This document shows, piece after piece, positions 34,392 to 54,432 of a stretch of 64,000 nt of DNA. A program made the translations under genes and the position numbers. The stretch spans positions 64,001 through 128,000 of IMG/VR virus record IMGVR_UViG_3300031998_000003; one strand, given 5' to 3'. The notes beneath the pieces were generated by a model that made no database searches, had not been told where the DNA came from, and was given only the letters and a program-made list of their open reading frames with translations. Every line of letters begins with the position of its first letter. The stretch's first letter is position 1. This DNA comes from a virus (taxonomy: Duplodnaviria; Caudoviricetes).

Positions 34392-35609
34392 TTATTTACG
34401 TTGGGACTTCTCGAATTGCTCAATTCGTTGAAGTTTCCGTTTGGCTTTTGCAAGCTGATCTTTTGACAACTTGCCAGAATCAATCTGTTGTTTCAGTTGC
34501 TCCTTAGAAAGTTGACGTTGTTTCGTTGCATTTGCATCGAGTTGCTTTTGACGTTTTTCATATTGCTGTTGTGCATATTCACCACGCTTCTGATGCGCGA
34601 ATACCATTTCATCTTCATCTCTAGGAACTAATTCAAGTTGTCCTCTGGCAGTACGAGCTTTATTTATCCGAGCAGCATCGCGTTGATTATTTTTTGCATC
34701 GCGTCTTAAATGACGAAGCTGTGTATCACCTTTTGCATATCTGTTATACAATTCACTATAAGCATCTGCGTCATATTCAGCGGGATCTAAATCATGGTCT
34801 GTCTCAATTTTGTCCCAAAAATCATCTGGCATATTATCAAGATATGATTTTGCTTCGTTACGCCGGCGCAGACCTTCCGAACCAGATTTCCAAAGCTCCT
34901 TACCACTTTCAAAATCATATACTTTATCTGGTGCTTGTGCAGCATGTCCTTCTTCATGCTTATATGTTGCATTTGCGTAAGCTGGCTTCTGTTGAATGCT
35001 TCTTGGTTGCATATTGATACTGTCCGTATCCACTTGTCCATATCGCTTCAGTTTACCATTAACCCTCATTTGATATGCTGCATCAACATGTTGGTTAGCT
35101 GCATGTGGATTGATTGTAAATGGCACACGTTTCTTTTGTCCGGGGTTATTCTTATCATTGATATCCGTGAGAATTGTTTCTGTTTTGGGGTCATATCCGT
35201 TTTCACGAAGGAATTTGTTCATACGGTTCCGTTCTTTGTTTGAGCCGATCTTTCCAGCGGATATGCGCTTGCCAGGACGATTCGGATCTTCGATAGTGTT
35301 AGTTTTAGGATCATACTTGTGTTTTTTCAAATATTCGTCATATGGACCATAAGCTGCTTCCTGAATAATGTCATCGTCATATGAGTCAAGCAGAATACCA
35401 AACTCGTTGATAGCTTCGTCATGTGCGTCAGGGTCATCGAATAACGCATTATGATATTCGGATACGTAGAACAAAGAGTCTCCAAGCTGAACAAACCAGT
35501 CACATTCTTCGAAGACTTCATCTTCTACGATGGTAGACTCTGCCTCAACGACAGAGTCCACCGGATAATCATAATGAGATTTACAAAATCTCTTTGGTAT
35601 ATCAGACAT
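34392..35609 (-). CDS. Probable virion protein with zincin metallopeptidase-like motif
   Basis: Acidic leader ending IIQEAA; HEEGH plus downstream EYDADAY. Confidence 0.6.
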   Translation of the reverse strand: MSDIPKRFCKSHYDYPVDSVVEAESTIVEDEVFEECDWFVQLGDSLFYVSEYHNALFDDPDAHDEAINEFGILLDSYDDDIIQEAAYGPYDEYLKKHKYDPKTNTIEDPNRPGKRISAGKIGSNKERNRMNKFLRENGYDPKTETILTDINDKNNPGQKKRVPFTINPHAANQHVDAAYQMRVNGKLKRYGQVDTDSINMQPRSIQQKPAYANATYKHEEGHAAQAPDKVYDFESGKELWKSGSEGLRRRNEAKSYLDNMPDDFWDKIETDHDLDPAEYDADAYSELYNRYAKGDTQLRHLRRDAKNNQRDAARINKARTARGQLELVPRDEDEMVFAHQKRGEYAQQQYEKRQKQLDANATKQRQLSKEQLKQQIDSGKLSKDQLAKAKRKLQRIEQFEKSQRK

Positions 35610-38600
35610 AATGTCCCTCCTTGTGATGGTATCCCGAGAATCTTGCTGGAATCACAAAACTCTCTTGTTTAACATTCTCAGCTTCTCCGTCGTAAATCAT
35701 TTTACCAGACATAATTGTCTGCATGAATTCTTTGATGGGAGTACCGTAATCGATTTTTGTATCGGTGTAATCCCATACACCAAAGTTACCGGATTTCCCT
35801 TCATAATCAGCCATGCATTCTGCAACGTAATCAAAGATGTCATTGAGTTTGTCAAATGTCTTTTGACGTTCATAACCCCATTCATCAGTGACACGTTTGA
35901 ATGCTTGTTCGATGTATATGTACTTTCCATTGAGTGAAACAACACAAATAGTATGGGTTCCGAGCATCTCGTTCTTTTTATCGGTGAATGACATGAAGTA
36001 TTTTTTGTATGCTACACCGAAGGCTTCGAGGTATCCTGCTTCATATTCGACCATGTCGTAGCAGTTACCACCGCCAGCTTCATCGACTTCCTGACCAGTA
36101 TGGAATACCCAGTACTTTTCATAATCTGATTCAGAAACGTCTCCGCTTTGCAATCTACCATTTCTGATCAGACCATACTTGAACTTCTTCAGATCGATAC
36201 AAAGATCAGCAATGACATTTTCGGGAGAGTAATCGAACTTCGTTCCTTTTGCAAGGACCTTCGGTTTGACAACCCAGTGCCATTTGTATGTGAAGTAATT
36301 GCGGTCACCCTTTTCGCCTTTGGATGTTGGGACCACTGGCTTTCGTTTCACATTGGATACCTGATCGACACGAATAACACCGTACAGCTTCATGCGAACT
36401 GGTTCCATGATCCAAACTTCGCGCGTGACATTTGCATCATACACGAGCTTATCCTTAACCAGTTCTTTGTTGGTCTTATGCTTATACTGTTTCCACGGTT
36501 TCTCTGGAATGTATACATAAAGCTTGTCGAACTGATCTGGATTTTGTCTCGGAAGATTGACGGTGATTCCGTTCAGACAACCTTCGATAGATGTTGAGAA
36601 GCAGATGCGTGGAGTCGTGTTATCCTCAAATCCAGTTTCTTCCGGATTGTATGGATCCAGATAGTCAGGAACACGGGGTTTCCATACCTGACCGTCAGCA
36701 TGTTTCTCCGGTGTTACATGAAATACCATCTTATCTGAATATGGATTAACACCATTCTTGAGATCCTGAAAGGCACCTTCTTGGGTGATCAGCGGTTTTT
36801 CTAACATCCTATCAGTTATAAGTAAGCCGCCTAGACCACCGCCCATTTCAGTTATTTCGATATTTTTGTTTATCAAGTATCCGAATCCATGCTCGTCATC
36901 ATATTTGAATTCACACTCAACAAGGAAAAATGGTATTCCGGAATCAGTATAATCGAATATGATTAATGTTGGCTTAATGACATCCATGGCATCAGACATT
37001 TTTAAGCCTTCAATTTCCGAAATATTATCACCATCACATTCTTTGTCGTATGATATCATCAAAAGCTTTGCTTCTTCGAAACAAGCTTTATTGAAAATAT
37101 CCTTGGATTTTGTGATGATATCAGGAATCATCTGACTGAGATCCTCGTATACAGTATCATGGTCAAAACTATCATTCAATGTTTCGACTGGTACAGTGAC
37201 AGAATGTCCAAAATAGTTTAACGAAACCTGACCAATCGTCACAAATTGAGCATTCTCTTGTATTGTACCTTCTTGGAATGGAACGCAACCATATGTTTTA
37301 CCGCATGATTCACATGTATAGATTGGCTCGCCTTTCATTGCGATTGATATATTACCACCACAATCACATTTCTTCATGACAGCCATACCATCGTCATTGA
37401 ATCCAAGGACATCGTCTTTATATTTTGCGAAGTGACCCGATTCAAAAACATTCGTGGATTCTTGTGTCAGTTTAGAACGATCGTACTTCATCCAGTATTC
37501 TTCATGAGGCGGATCATACCATACACCTTTCTTATAGATCTCGAAACCATAATCGAGATACAGATGTACTGCCGGTTCATTATCACAACGAACTGTGAGA
37601 TCTTCACCACCAAATCGGCGTACAGCATCATCAATCAGAATCCATCCATATCCTTGACGACGATAGCTTGGGGTGACTTCAATATTGAAAATGAATCCTT
37701 TATTCTTTTTGGTAGTATGCACAAATGCATGACCGATGGCTTCACCAGTTTCACGGTTAACAAGGAATTCACCATTGGTCGCTTTGTGCATGTCTTCCCA
37801 GTATTGACTCAATTCAGGATCTTCTTTCAGATACTTCAAACCTTCTTCAGATGGCACAAGCACACGTCTGAATCTGGGATCAGAATCATCTCCAGGAGCC
37901 AACATTCCATGGTCACGCATGTACGGAATGTCCAAGGAATTCTTCCATGGTATCACATTCGCAGGATTGTTGACATCGTTGAAAAGTTCCGTGTTAAACG
38001 GTCTTGTGTCCAGACGTACCATATATGAGTTCTTGAAGTTTATATCTCTGAAGTAGTTATGTGATGAATCTGATTCATCGATTTCTTTCAATAGATCAGC
38101 TTGTGCATCCATTATGTATGCATAATCATTGATGTTTACAACCAGAAATTCATGACCGCCTGTTGAATCTTTCCAGTTGACGTGTACATACCATCTTGAA
38201 TCAACATTGCCACGAACCTTTTTGATGACATCTCTCTGAGACACGAAAGATTCCTTAATCGGATTCATAACAATATCTTCACCGTGGTGATGTCCGTTAC
38301 CGGGTAATGCTGGATCACGGGGTGAATAGATCGGGCGTGGTAATGCATTGATTCCACGATACCGTGCTTCAGCACACCATGTACACAGTTCACAGTTCTG
38401 ATTTCCTGTCGGTGGTTTGGAATCCTTTTCAACTTGAGCTGAGATTTCCTTCACGATCTTCTGGGCAAATAGAAATGGTTCCGCTTTCATATCCCGTTTA
38501 CCGATCGCTTCTGCATGTGCAACACCAATTCTTTTGACACGAGATAACAACTCGTCATCTTCCTCAGTTGTCATGGAAACACCTGACGACATTTGACTGG

Positions 38601-38955
38601 AAGTTGCTGCAAGCTTTTGAGCAAGCTCCTCATTTGCTTCATCATAATATGGAGCCATTGTACGAGGTGGTGAATTACCAATACTCGTACCGTCACTCAT
38701 CGGTGGTACTTGTTCGGTTACACCAGCAACTTTGTTAGCTGCGTGTAGTTTTGATGTATCCATACCCTCTTCCTCTGCACGATGACGAATTTTGCGTGCA
38801 AGCGCTTTTTTCTCTTCTGGTGTAATATCACCATTATTGATGAGATTGTTTGCAGATTTGATCTCATGAGGATTACGGAGAGGGTATTTATCTTTACCGG
38901 GAACACCCATTTCACTGTCAGGTATTTCCCGCCGTTCTTTTGCGGATATTGACAT
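35602..38955 (-). CDS. Polyvalent multi-enzyme protein (DUF6582, papain-fold, GNAT, Zn finger, DUF6985-like, ART-like, transglutaminase-like)
   Basis: KERREIPDSEMG..KYPL; QNCELC...GGHEF...MDAQ; IEVTPSYRRQGYG...NEPAVHLY; DDEHGFG; FHVT..PRVP..PRICFSTSI; GNCYD...HT...YIE. Confidence 0.75.
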   Translation of the reverse strand: MSISAKERREIPDSEMGVPGKDKYPLRNPHEIKSANNLINNGDITPEEKKALARKIRHRAEEEGMDTSKLHAANKVAGVTEQVPPMSDGTSIGNSPPRTMAPYYDEANEELAQKLAATSSQMSSGVSMTTEEDDELLSRVKRIGVAHAEAIGKRDMKAEPFLFAQKIVKEISAQVEKDSKPPTGNQNCELCTWCAEARYRGINALPRPIYSPRDPALPGNGHHHGEDIVMNPIKESFVSQRDVIKKVRGNVDSRWYVHVNWKDSTGGHEFLVVNINDYAYIMDAQADLLKEIDESDSSHNYFRDINFKNSYMVRLDTRPFNTELFNDVNNPANVIPWKNSLDIPYMRDHGMLAPGDDSDPRFRRVLVPSEEGLKYLKEDPELSQYWEDMHKATNGEFLVNRETGEAIGHAFVHTTKKNKGFIFNIEVTPSYRRQGYGWILIDDAVRRFGGEDLTVRCDNEPAVHLYLDYGFEIYKKGVWYDPPHEEYWMKYDRSKLTQESTNVFESGHFAKYKDDVLGFNDDGMAVMKKCDCGGNISIAMKGEPIYTCESCGKTYGCVPFQEGTIQENAQFVTIGQVSLNYFGHSVTVPVETLNDSFDHDTVYEDLSQMIPDIITKSKDIFNKACFEEAKLLMISYDKECDGDNISEIEGLKMSDAMDVIKPTLIIFDYTDSGIPFFLVECEFKYDDEHGFGYLINKNIEITEMGGGLGGLLITDRMLEKPLITQEGAFQDLKNGVNPYSDKMVFHVTPEKHADGQVWKPRVPDYLDPYNPEETGFEDNTTPRICFSTSIEGCLNGITVNLPRQNPDQFDKLYVYIPEKPWKQYKHKTNKELVKDKLVYDANVTREVWIMEPVRMKLYGVIRVDQVSNVKRKPVVPTSKGEKGDRNYFTYKWHWVVKPKVLAKGTKFDYSPENVIADLCIDLKKFKYGLIRNGRLQSGDVSESDYEKYWVFHTGQEVDEAGGGNCYDMVEYEAGYLEAFGVAYKKYFMSFTDKKNEMLGTHTICVVSLNGKYIYIEQAFKRVTDEWGYERQKTFDKLNDIFDYVAECMADYEGKSGNFGVWDYTDTKIDYGTPIKEFMQTIMSGKMIYDGEAENVKQESFVIPARFSGYHHKEGHYV

Positions 38956-38982
38956 AACTACGCTCCTTTCCGGAATTAAAGT

Positions 38983-38994
38983 TACAGAAACGTT
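38983..38994 (-). promoter_or_regulatory. Putative late promoter AAC-N7-TA
   Basis: AACGTTTCTGTA on minus strand, downstream of terminator 39016-39039. Confidence 0.5.
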
Positions 38995-39073
38995 TTCGAT
39001 TAACATACAAAGATCAGGCGGGGGCAAACGCCCCCGCCTCATCTTCCGTGTTAATTAGATCATCAAGATAGCA

Positions 39074-51490: not shown

Positions 51491-51623
51491 TTATTAATGT
51501 ATGCAAGTGGTCATAAGCAACCCATGTAGGGTATGAGCTTCCACACAATGTTCCGGCCGGGACTTATGTAAAACTCGCAATTGCGAGCGGGGGCTACGCG
51601 GGTTCGAATCCCGCCATTAATAA
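51491..51623 (+). ncRNA. tRNA-like RNA with ~75-nt central insertion
   Basis: TTATTAATG/CATTAATAA; D arm TGC-AAGTGGTCATAA-GCA; GCGGG-TTCGAAT-CCCGC. Confidence 0.7.
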
Positions 51624-51691
51624 TAAGCTCGACAAAGTGAAATCAATCATGAAGGGTCCGACGCCTTCATGCATCGGATATATTGATATAT

Positions 51692-51765
51692 CGGGATGTG
51701 GTGAAGTTTGGTATCACGCCACTTTTGGGAAGTGGAAGCCCAGGGTTCGAATCCCTGCATTCCGA
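51692..51765 (+). tRNA. tRNA-Pro(TGG)
   Basis: CGGGATG/CATTCCG; CCACT-TTTGGGA-AGTGG; CAGGG-TTCGAAT-CCCTG. Confidence 0.93.
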
Positions 51766-51769
51766 GTAA

Positions 51770-51818
51770 AAGGCACGTACAGCAATTCTAACGAATGAAT
51801 ATGATCGTTTGTGCCTTG
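51770..51818 (+). ncRNA. Small stem-loop RNA with TACAGCAA motif (skipping-rope-like candidate)
   Basis: AAGGCAC-GTACAGCAA...GTGCCTTG; family resemblance is from memory only. Confidence 0.4.
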
Positions 51819-51820
51819 TA

Positions 51821-51898
51821 GGTGAAGTAGCTCAGGTGGTAGAGCGTCGGGAGTGTAACTCCTGCAGGGATGTCAGGTTCGAGACCTAACCTTCACCA
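51821..51898 (+). tRNA. Atypical tRNA (possible GTA/Tyr anticodon) or tRNA-like RNA
   Basis: GGTGAAG/CTTCACC-A, canonical D arm, shifted anticodon stem, 6-bp T stem with mismatch. Confidence 0.55.
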
Positions 51899-51904
51899 TC
51901 ATTC

Positions 51905-52315
51905 CACATCAAAAGAGTAATTTCAAAAGCCGCATCCTGGAAGGGTCCAGGATGGGTAAGCTTTACCAAGGAAACCGTTGCAGTGCACAAGGATAAGAGT
52001 AATGTAGATATGCTGCAGTTCCTAGTATCGGACGGGTACGAAACCTTGGTTGCGTCATGGGCGCTAGTAAGACGCGCTCTGCCGAAATGAGCCTAAACGT
52101 AAAGCCATAGTCGAAAGGATTCATGTTTACTGCATATCTTGGACATGAATCGCAAAGTAGCTGGTAGGAAAAGGATGATACGGCATATTCCCCTAGTAGT
52201 GGCGAGCGAAAAGGGATCCACAAAAGAGCATGGGGAGCCATAGCTCCGAACACGTGCTTGCGAGTGGTTAAAAACGCCCTGGAACGGGTATGGACGGTTA
52301 TGAAATTTTGATGTG
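51905..52315 (+). ncRNA. Large (~410 nt) structured ncRNA
   Basis: CACATCAAAA/TTTTGATGTG closing stem, nested helices, long-range loop complementarities, loop-E hairpin. Confidence 0.75.
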
Positions 52316-52402
52316 AGATATGACAATGACTGTGAATTGTTCCAGACTATTTGGTTAGCGCGGGATCAGAAACGGGTTCACCAGAATAGTTCATGAGTCT
52401 AG

Positions 52403-52506
52403 ATTGTTGTGTGAGCGGGAACGCACTGGCCACCTAGCGAGCCAGGTATACCGGAGGATTCCGGCGAACATAATTGAAGTGAGACGCATAAATTACACAC
52501 AACAAT
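52403..52506 (+). ncRNA. Structured RNA, ~105 nt
   Basis: ATTGTTGTGTG/CACACAACAAT 11-bp closing stem; CTGGC/GCCAG and CCGGA/TCCGG hairpins. Confidence 0.6.
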
Positions 52507-52507
52507 T

Positions 52508-52596
52508 GGAGTCGAGACGTGATGACCGCAAGGTCAGGTGGTGTGGCGAAAGTGCGCATTCTCGTCGCACAGTGGGTTCGATTCCCACACGGCTCT
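52508..52596 (+). ncRNA. tRNA-like RNA with T arm and non-tRNA D/anticodon arms
   Basis: GGAGTCG/CGGCTCT; TGACC-GCAA-GGTCA; GTGTGGCGA/TCGTCGCAC; GTGGG-TTCGATT-CCCAC. Confidence 0.65.
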
Positions 52597-52822: not shown

Positions 52823-52898
52823 GACTCGGTAGCCAAGCGGGAAGGCAGGGGTGTGCAAAACCCTGATACGTCTTGTTCGAATCAGACCCGAGTCTCCA
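52823..52898 (+). tRNA. tRNA-Cys(GCA)
   Basis: GACTCGG/CCGAGTC-T-CCA; loop GTGCAAA; bulged T stem. Confidence 0.85.
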
Positions 52899-53072: not shown

Positions 53073-53148
53073 GATCCATTAGCTCAGTCGGCAGAGCAAA
53101 TGACTGTTAATCATTGGGTCGTAGGTTCAAGTCCTACAGCGGGAGCCA
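53073..53148 (+). tRNA. tRNA-Asn(GTT) with non-pairing acceptor stem
   Basis: Canonical D, anticodon (CTGTTAA) and T arms and GCCA end, but GATCCAT vs AGCGGGA. Confidence 0.75.
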
Positions 53149-53160
53149 ATAAATATTATG

Positions 53161-53200
53161 AATAAGGGGCGCTTCGGCGCCCCTTATTCTTTTTTTTTTA
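53161..53200 (+). terminator. Intrinsic terminator ending RNA island
   Basis: AATAAGGGGCGC-TTCG-GCGCCCCTTATT followed by T run. Confidence 0.9.
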
Positions 53201-53301: not shown

Positions 53302-54432
53302 ATGATTTTTACTAAGAATTTGGCGCCTGAAATCATTGCGGCAATACAGCCGTATATTAATGCACTACGAAGTCCGGCTACTGATCTTGTGAGTTTCAAA
53401 ACTTCGGATGAGTTACTCGATTTCTGCAAACTCGTGCTACCGAAAGGTTGTTTCGAGAAGGTTACCCTTAACGGTGATGAACTTGCTGATTTCAGAGAAG
53501 ATCTGAAAGAAACCAGTGATATCAAAAACGCTGATGATGCCCTGGTTGAAAAGGAAGTGTTCCAAGTGCCGAATGATATATTTGTGGCAAATACAATTCC
53601 GCTAAAACAGCTGGATCTCGAACTTCAGGATACTGACGACGGGTTCAGTGACTGCTTCAAAATGTGTATAAATAACATGGTAACAGTCCTGCATGTGACT
53701 GACGGTGCTCCTATGGATGAAGCGTTTACTATTGAAGCAATTATCCCGATCGATCAAATTCAGGGATATATAGCACACTATCCTGGGAACGTAACCGATT
53801 TGGACTTTGTAATCGGTGCAATCAGATATGTTGAGAAGTGCAGTATTGTAAAAAATGAAGCAACTGCATTGGTTATTATGAGAAATGACTATATGTACGT
53901 CGGTGACCCGTATTTCTCGGATATAAGCGTGACAGACCTTAGAACAGGTGAGCACGTATCTATTTCAGAGTATCTTGCTGATATTGATGGTAGGATTAAC
54001 AATGGATCTCTTATTGAGTTCATGCTTAGATTACAAGATTCAATATCACGCTCTATTACAGCGTTTTACAGCGTCAATGCGGCATTGCTAAATCCAGTTA
54101 TTGTTGATGTCTATAACAATAAAACGTCACGTATACCGGATAGATCCATTACTGCAAAGAAGTCATCAAAAAGGGGTAAGATCCGGTACATTAAACGGCA
54201 TTTCATGACTGTTGATGATGTTGACAAAGCTTTCGAAAAGCGTGGCTTCGTTCGCAAAGCAATGATCTGGTACGTTACCGGACATTGGCGAGAGTACAGC
54301 AAAACTGGCAAACGAGTATTCATCCAGGGATACTGGAAGGGTGCTTTGCGAAATATGAAAGACACTGTCTTCCAGGATCTTGAGCCTCGCGAACGCGAAC
54401 TTGTTACAAAGGAGGAACCTGAAAATGTTTGA
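53302..54432 (+). CDS. Conserved phage protein with C-terminal VxGHWR...GK..FI..YWKG motif
   Basis: WYVTGHWREYSKTGKRVFIQGYWKG. Confidence 0.75.
   Translation: MIFTKNLAPEIIAAIQPYINALRSPATDLVSFKTSDELLDFCKLVLPKGCFEKVTLNGDELADFREDLKETSDIKNADDALVEKEVFQVPNDIFVANTIPLKQLDLELQDTDDGFSDCFKMCINNMVTVLHVTDGAPMDEAFTIEAIIPIDQIQGYIAHYPGNVTDLDFVIGAIRYVEKCSIVKNEATALVIMRNDYMYVGDPYFSDISVTDLRTGEHVSISEYLADIDGRINNGSLIEFMLRLQDSISRSITAFYSVNAALLNPVIVDVYNNKTSRIPDRSITAKKSSKRGKIRYIKRHFMTVDDVDKAFEKRGFVRKAMIWYVTGHWREYSKTGKRVFIQGYWKGALRNMKDTVFQDLEPRERELVTKEEPENV

Follow-up and report, generated by a model that had tools for sequence, protein, structure and literature searches.

The sequence analysed here, referred to as the window, is a 64,000-nucleotide stretch (bases 64001–128000) of a 248,669-bp IMG/VR virus record estimated to be 92% complete, and the DNA runs holding this stretch derive from bovine and goat gut metagenomes. 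Coordinates below are those of the window, while 'nt' counts from the first base of the element under study. All tRNAs of the region lie on the + strand. A tRNA-Pro (51691–51766), found by Rfam and ARAGORN scans, is followed by a weakly predicted tRNA-Tyr (51821–51898; anticodon GTA according to ARAGORN, 33.7 bits with Rfam), which ends 6 nt before a 411-nt RNA unit on the + strand (51905–52315), hereafter the element. Its recognition as a unit rests on its folding z-score, on eight homologues and on contigs from RNA libraries. Downstream of it come a tRNA-Cys at 52823 and a tRNA-Asn at 53074, and a strong intrinsic terminator on the + strand (53160–53199; a 13-bp stem followed by T10) closes the tRNA/ncRNA array. 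A gene at 53302–54432 encodes a neighbouring protein with relatives in a large protein collection. Credible ORFs are absent around the element, and Rfam 15, scanned over the window, reported tRNAs only.

The array contains other structured sequence. Directly 3′ of the element are two more closed units (52316–52512), one of them framed by AGATTGTTGTGTGA and TTACACACAACAATT (~52401–52512), which are kept with the array in relatives and spanned by the same RNA-library contigs as the element. At 51491–51623 there is a tRNA-like scaffold with an acceptor stem, a D arm and a perfect T arm, in which an insert of ~75 nt replaces the anticodon region. In L017, a distant relative, the array is of the same kind and holds a scaffold built in the same way (L017:3826–3985), the two being recognisably homologous to each other; a homologue of the element was not found in L017. 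The L017 array also includes a 136-nt tRNA-like gene (L017:4007–4142; Rfam tRNA, 46.5 bits) whose anticodon-stem region is followed by an insertion of ~60 nt, perhaps an intron or cargo. Elsewhere in the window, a 1146-aa protein encoded on the − strand (35602–39042) combines a papain-fold glutamine deamidase domain with a GNAT acetyltransferase and DUF6985. In another contig, the homologue of the neighbouring protein (L039:697–1815) matches the query only when TAG is read as Gln, which hints at a recoded stop codon in some relatives.

Homologues of the element were sought in the contigs of relatives of the neighbouring protein and by an exact-word scan of JGI metagenomes. Eight further copies, six of them distinct, were recovered from rumen and gut contigs at 85–93% identity (L011, L012, L015, L018, L034 with identical sequence in L035 and L036, L041, L042 and L043). 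Every copy with upstream sequence has a tRNA ending 7–8 nt 5′ of the element; in the window the distance is 6 nt. The linker between tRNA and element, TCATTC(T), is conserved across copies. The tRNA itself (window 51815–51910 compared with L015, L034 and L041–L043) is of two unrelated types, one with a long variable arm, called as Tyr-GTA or as an odd Thr-AGT, and the other Arg-TCT. What is conserved upstream is the junction between tRNA and element, not the tRNA. Other searches gave no further copies: neither the two neighbouring proteins nor an exact 27-mer led to close relatives in IMG/VR, the element had no match among 50,697 phage records, and cultured phages searched at E ≤ 10 returned mislabelled rRNA records only.

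Relative to L015 and L018, the element is 87–90% identical and the array 86%, compared with 68–83% for the coding flanks, and the neighbouring protein is 57–58% identical in these two contigs. By these figures the conservation of the element exceeds that of the coding DNA on either side. Across the family, nt 300–332 form an invariant 33-mer. Indels of 1, 3 and 16 nt separate the copies and exclude a coding reading. A protein-coding gene was also rejected on inspection of the locus, where only short overlapping ORFs on the opposite strand are found, and on the paired substitutions of the homologues described below.

Contigs assembled from four RNA-seq libraries, belonging to four studies, cover 51913–52511 at 92–96% identity to the window. 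Three of these contigs, from three studies, start at 51913–51918 and stay clear of the flanking tRNAs, one joins the upstream tRNA to the element, and none extends beyond ~52511, where the second downstream unit ends and a tRNA-like element follows; as assembled contigs they cannot give ends, strand or level, DNA carry-over is possible, and the uncovered parts do not count as evidence. The contigs run on through 52315, the predicted 3′ end of the element. This pattern fits transcription of the units between the tRNAs, and the element is probably transcribed.

The 411 nt fold at −131 kcal/mol (z = −3.2), better than all 100 of 100 shuffles, and a 10-bp helix joining the two ends is found in the MFE and centroid structures alike. 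We combined the hairpins proposed in an earlier note on this DNA, every quoted string of which is present where the note had placed it, with RNAalifold helices, and tested the resulting model on a nine-sequence alignment, A3. Under the model 95.6% of cells are paired, compared with 31–46% when partners are slid, and five pairs show two-sided changes, compared with 0–2 in the slid controls. The covariation score of the model was reached by none of 500 shuffles. Compensatory pairs occur at 10:402 in helix P1, at 74:128 in CCGUU/GACGG, at 149:392 in CGUC/GACG, at 158:172 in P7, and in P11; overall, at least nine base pairs over seven helices show compensatory changes.

The architecture that emerges is a closed, multi-domain one, with all parts on the + strand. 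The P1 strands at 51905–51914 and 52306–52315 form the 10-bp closing helix, CACATCAAAA/TTTTGATGTG, which had been proposed earlier and with which the homologues agree, including one A:U to U:A swap (10:402, in L018). Inside it stands P4 (51933–51954), a 9-bp hairpin with 100% of cells paired and two one-sided changes, followed by a 5′ domain (51965–52050) closed by ACCAAGG/CCTTGGT, whose inner CCGUU/GACGG helix has a compensatory U:A to C:G change. The pairings CATCCTGGA/TCCAGGATG and ACCAAGG/CCTTGGT, both foreseen by the note, are kept in the homologues with one-sided changes only. CGUC (52053–52056, nt 149–152) pairs with GACG (52293–52296, nt 389–392), with a compensatory C:G to U:A change in L018, and this helix encloses the 3′ two-thirds of the element. 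It takes the place of the AGCCG/CGGTT helix suggested previously, which the homologues contradict with two mismatches in L018, precisely where CGUC/GACG is compensated; a second suggested helix, TTTCA/TGAAA, is broken in L043.

Several hairpins are arranged within the 3′ two-thirds. P7, the anticipated GGGCGC/GCGCUC hairpin (52059–52079), changes from C:G to U:A in four to five of the nine sequences. P8 (52118–52151) is a 34-nt hairpin with three compensatory stem pairs and an invariant loop; copies folded separately show its double changes as GAUUC.../...GAAUC in some and CUCUC.../...GAGAG in others. These three double changes bear out the GATTCATGT/ACATGAATC hairpin predicted by the note. 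A short helix around P8, resembling helix H11 of 23S rRNA, also covaries, with CCAA/UUGG in some copies and CCAG/CUGG in others (one compensatory pair). The P10/P11 hairpin (52227–52258) consists of AGCAUG/CGUGCU around GGAGC/GCUCC, the latter already recognised in the note; P11 undergoes a G:C to A:U change and the loop varies in length. P12, GCCC-UGGAAC-GGGU (52276–52289), has a one-sided G:U to G:C change.

The note had also named three long-range complements as pseudoknots, GAUAUGC/GCAUAUC, UUCCUA/UAGGAA and UGCCG/CGGCA. All three complementarities are present and invariant in nine of nine sequences, so that covariation neither supports nor refutes their pairing; the homologues are too similar to one another for testing tertiary pairings, and by our own estimate about one 8-nt complement is expected by chance per 411 nt. 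UGCCG/CGGCA turns out to be nested in the structure, and is not a pseudoknot. The first two partners in the 5′ domain are the loop GAUAUGC (52007–52013) and UUCCUA (52019–52024). GAUAUGC is complementary to the invariant P8 loop GCAUAUC (52132–52138), and both lie in loops that stay constant while the adjoining stems vary, a pattern that fits a loop–loop contact and would fit two binding sites as well. Self-assembly of the RNA, which the note had raised, is possible; nothing in our analysis favours its other suggestion, a ribozyme.

We compared the element with known RNA families. With relaxed filters, cmscan run on just the element yielded, at E ≤ 10, a sub-threshold bacterial LSU hairpin as its sole match. 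Neither ROOL (RF03087) nor GOLLD (RF01998) has a covariance-model match to the element at E ≤ 10, and RNase P RNA, tmRNA and group I and group II introns are also without a match at that threshold, in agreement with the note's failure to place the RNA among GOLLD, ROOL, RNase P or tmRNA. The note had likened a CGAAAG...AAGTAG junction to group II intron domain I; group II introns are among the families without a match, and the junction corresponds instead to the GAA/AGUA motif of a copy of rRNA helix H11. The setting is not that of an intron either, which should lie between exons to be rejoined, the element being intergenic, 6 nt 3′ of a complete tRNA. A bacterial LSU rRNA gene (RF02541) was rejected as well: only model positions 236–263 match, at 13.6–17.9 bits compared with a gathering score of 50.

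That sub-threshold match belongs to a larger resemblance. The stretch from 52103 to 52217 on the + strand (nt ~199–313) is a copy of H11, H12 and H13 of 23S rRNA (E. coli nt ~183–263; RF02541 184–263). Within it, nt 237–312 align over 77 nt with positions 188–262 of E. coli 23S at 73% identity (pairwise BLAST E = 2e-8). The H13-like hairpin (52189–52216), with its stem, AGUA/GAA motif and GGCGA tip, is the part that matches Rfam LSU positions 236–263 (17.9 and 13.6 bits). When 50-nt windows of the element were compared with the whole E. coli rrn operon, nt 251–300 and 276–325 gave z = 7.3 and z = 11.0, while the remaining windows ranged from −1.6 to +0.7. A profile HMM of the element family matched 15 real 23S rRNAs solely through positions ~250–313.

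Structure extends the match beyond the reach of sequence. We took the phage module (nt 196–316) with its own helices as the basis of a covariance model, R1, which aligns full-length with 14 real 23S rRNAs at E values of 1e-5 to 1e-2. In the alignment H11 is matched by the outer helix of the module, the two strands of the H11 internal motif by GAAA and AGUA, the H11/H12 junction by AGGAAAAG and H13 by the last hairpin, and the 37 positions of P8 correspond to 2–9 nt in the real rRNAs. Of the 29 columns with a conservation of 90% or more across the 14 rRNAs, the phage consensus in this alignment agrees at 27, a count that fitting biases upward; of the 38 variable columns it agrees at 19. The collinear sequence and pairing of H11, the junction, the H12 region and H13 are accordingly all found, in the order seen in 23S rRNA: the H11 closing helix, GAA opposite AGUA, the AGGAAAAG junction, and H13 with AGUA/GAA and the GGCGA tip. 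We read both AGUA/GAA motifs as bulged-G, loop-E-type motifs. Taken together, these comparisons identify ~115 of the 411 nt as an H11–H13 copy with an expanded H11 tip.

The copy departs from the ribosomal original in several respects. It makes up only ~115 of the 411 nt, the 34-nt hairpin P8 stands in place of the H11 tip, and in the predicted fold UGCCG/CGGCA ties the H12 region to a strand further upstream, whereas rRNA forms a local hairpin there. The H13 tip is variable within the phage family, being GGCGA in four copies, UAGCAA in two and interrupted by a 16-nt insert in three. Since this tip varies in the family and is near-invariant in real rRNA, exact mimicry of the whole hairpin does not appear to be required. 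H11 has been described as contacting H37 between domains during assembly (PMC9935924) and, in the literature, as binding a K+ ion; the H11–H37 contact is notable here, since the H11 tip is exactly what P8 replaces in the phage RNA, and the P8 loop can pair with a different domain of the element. Our search of the literature on proteins contacting H11–H13 and on phage rRNA mimics found nothing usable. As a separate observation, the 22-nt spacing of the phage module from AGGAAAAG to UAGUAG is matched, among GTDB species genomes, at ten loci (L024–L033), mostly 23S rRNA genes of Patescibacteria (CPR), the H12 region being shorter in other bacteria; we do not read this as evidence on host or origin.

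Might the likeness to rRNA extend further? Several motifs, judged by eye, are collinear with domain I of the Rfam consensus, and one can construe the element as a scaled-down version of the entire 23S domain I, with P1 as H2, P7 as H6, the module as H11–H15 and P12 as H19 or H24, that would serve to decoy uL4 and uL24, two proteins of early assembly. With a second covariance model, R2, P10 falls on the H15 hairpin of Listeria 23S rRNA and the score is 35.5 bits, compared with 26.6 for R1, but this alignment has no backing from sequence statistics. In Smith–Waterman comparisons with 13–15 rRNAs, nothing outside nt ~250–313 scored above shuffles: the 5′ 236 nt, nt 313–370 and nt 360–401 did no better than shuffles, and the best rRNA matches of the segments outside the module fell at inconsistent places. 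Nor is the likeness of P12 to rRNA H19 or H24 significant; nhmmer gave no second profile match, the Rfam LSU model stops at H13, and no other rRNA-like segments were found in the 249-kb genome. We rejected the domain I miniature, which we consider very improbable, on these grounds: the statistics back nt ~250–313, which R1 extends to H11 (nt ~199). Because the other segments score like shuffles, the rRNA claim is limited to H11–H13. The note's proposal of a new large ncRNA class survives insofar as the element is large, structured and conserved and belongs to no Rfam 15 family, and has to be amended where nt ~199–313 are homologous to 23S H11–H13.

Part of the element is clearly rRNA-derived, and odd spacers are common in phage tRNA arrays. 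It could on these grounds be an inert spacer or a decaying fragment of captured host 23S rRNA that at most aids tRNA processing, a reading we find hardly credible. Among phages that share only 57% identity in the neighbouring protein, the element is no less conserved than coding DNA, its helices are maintained by compensatory substitutions, invariant loops lie beside variable stems, and its sequence occurs in RNA libraries. The best explanation of these observations is that the element is an ncRNA gene of a clade of jumbo phages of the cattle and goat gut.

The H13 hairpin also occurs outside this family. The 17-mer TAGTAGYGGCGAGCGAA is found at seven IMG/VR loci, two of which are genuine pieces of rRNA at the ends of contigs. 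The remaining five (L004, L005, L007, L009 and L010) are without a real LSU rRNA gene, and their contigs, of 49–265 kb, have almost no proteins in common; no neighbouring protein common to the five was found. Their hairpins carry the exact H13 core, UAGUAGYGGCGAGCGAA (L004:8066–8240, L005:7925–8010, L007:3876–3918, L009:985–1040 and L010:3332–3375). The core lies in intergenic RNA on the strand of the nearby tRNAs, and in four of the five loci it is flanked by complementary stems of 5–12 bp that are specific to the locus. By a rough estimate of our own, the count of seven matches is not in itself above chance, and it is because of the hairpin flanks and the tRNA context that the occurrence is judged non-random. 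The distribution suggests that the 23S H13 hairpin has been reused or recruited repeatedly by different phages.

The settings of these hairpins differ from one locus to another. The L004 hairpin lies within a tRNA-like scaffold, and that of L007 stands alone between two tRNAs. In L009, a 265-kb phage contig, a non-coding stretch of ~650 nt (L009:560–1240) follows an acyl-carrier-protein-like ORF and contains, besides the H13 hairpin, a second, interrupted UAGUAG...GGCGAG and a segment, GAAAUGUAAAGUAG, with a likeness to H11; a T-arm-like element closes the stretch ahead of a tRNA-Asn. Our models match the hairpin only, and the stretch may be another large rRNA-like RNA.

What might a phage gain from such an RNA? 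The element could be a processed, stable phage RNA that displays the rRNA look-alike as a decoy or sponge, a reading we put forward tentatively and short of an even chance. Starting from the structure, the conservation, the rRNA homology and the presence in RNA libraries, all of which are observed, we infer a processing route and a decoy function as follows. The element is probably transcribed from the + strand within the array that ends at the strong terminator, and probably excised during processing of the tRNA 6 nt upstream. The 10-bp end-to-end helix makes it a closed, multi-branched unit. Its module retains the closing helix of H11, the two AGUA/GAA motifs, the AGGAAAAG junction and the H13 hairpin, with P8 replacing the natural H11 tip and offering an invariant loop that can pair with the 5′-domain loop. 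The other ~300 nt would serve as a scaffold holding the look-alike in its ribosomal shape. The free RNA would bind a factor that recognises this part of 23S rRNA, be it a ribosomal protein, an assembly or processing factor, or a host nuclease or toxin directed at rRNA, and the bound factor would be titrated or diverted during infection.

Other known RNAs invite comparison. The operon leaders of the ribosomal proteins L1, L10, L20, S8 and S15 mimic the protein-binding sites of rRNA. They resemble the element in being RNA outside the ribosome that copies an rRNA site, but they are short cis-regulatory sequences upstream of their own gene, whereas the element is free-standing, in a tRNA array, with no adjacent ORF. 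The tRNA cluster of phage T4 encodes stable non-tRNA RNAs (species 1 and 2, RNA C and D) that are freed by tRNA processing. These too are encoded among phage tRNA genes; they are far smaller than the element, and the search of 50,697 phage records showed no relation in sequence. A more general proposition is that the tRNA arrays of phages carry free-standing mimics of defined segments of host 23S rRNA, here H11–H13 on a 300-nt scaffold, which would capture or divert a host factor reading the mimicked surface, for example an assembly protein or an rRNA-directed defence nuclease; this is possible, though we lean against it.

The main rival to the decoy reading is a large ornate RNA that works in its own right, for example as a multimer of the ROOL or GOLLD kind or a ribozyme, and in which H11–H13 would be a recycled, self-folding junction and imitate nothing. 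About three quarters of the element have no likeness to rRNA and yet are equally conserved, which this view explains readily, as it does the variable H13 tip. The invariant loops GAUAUGC and GCAUAUC could pair within or between molecules, and the rumen origin and the tRNA neighbourhood are held in common with ROOL. Indeed, the element is like ROOL and GOLLD in being a large, many-helix ncRNA, tRNA-associated and phage-borne, with a rumen source in the case of ROOL. It differs from them in being shorter, at 411 nt, and in having no match to any ROOL, GOLLD or ribozyme model at E ≤ 10; to our knowledge neither of the two has an rRNA copy, which the element does. The 27 of 29 conserved rRNA bases that are kept, a model-fitted figure that is biased upward, exceed the needs of a generic junction, and the lone H13 copies of other phages have no scaffold to build. 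On balance we regard the ornate RNA as rather unlikely.

A third possibility is that the partner is a ring protein of the Ro60/Rsr type, as for Y RNAs, with the terminal stem as the binding stem and the rRNA module mimicking a misfolded rRNA substrate. Y RNAs of the YrlA type are frequent in phages and are bound by Ro60/Rsr, and their effector module imitates a translation RNA. The element resembles them in having ends that pair, here into a long interrupted stem, and a module that imitates an RNA of translation. The distant relative L017 encodes a TROVE-domain (Ro60-like) protein (L017:1–1627; 26.4 bits with a cut-off of 23) just upstream of its array, but L017 is without the element. Conversely, the genome analysed here, 92% complete, has no TROVE gene at E ≤ 1 in searches with PF05731 and with the L017 TROVE protein, which leaves room for a host Rsr; a 630-aa protein upstream, tried as a Ro60 candidate, is unrelated to the L017 TROVE protein. 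Further differences from Y RNAs are that the element has no Rfam Y-RNA or YrlA match and that its module imitates rRNA, not tRNA. We consider a Ro60-type partner quite improbable.

Both of the kinds to which the element is related, large tRNA-associated phage RNAs and rRNA mimicry by non-ribosomal RNAs, are already known. Even without a decoy role, the element represents a 0.4-kb structured RNA family, apparently undescribed and probably expressed in the rumen, with separable modules: a scaffold, a possible loop–loop contact and an rRNA copy. Phage tRNA arrays are in part counter-measures to host nucleases that cut tRNA. If the decoy reading is true, a copy of a universally conserved 23S rRNA surface in the same arrays would extend this logic of tRNA counter-defence to the ribosome, and rRNA decoys would parallel the phage tRNAs that substitute for cleaved host tRNAs. 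It would also point to a host factor or defence that reads H11–H13.
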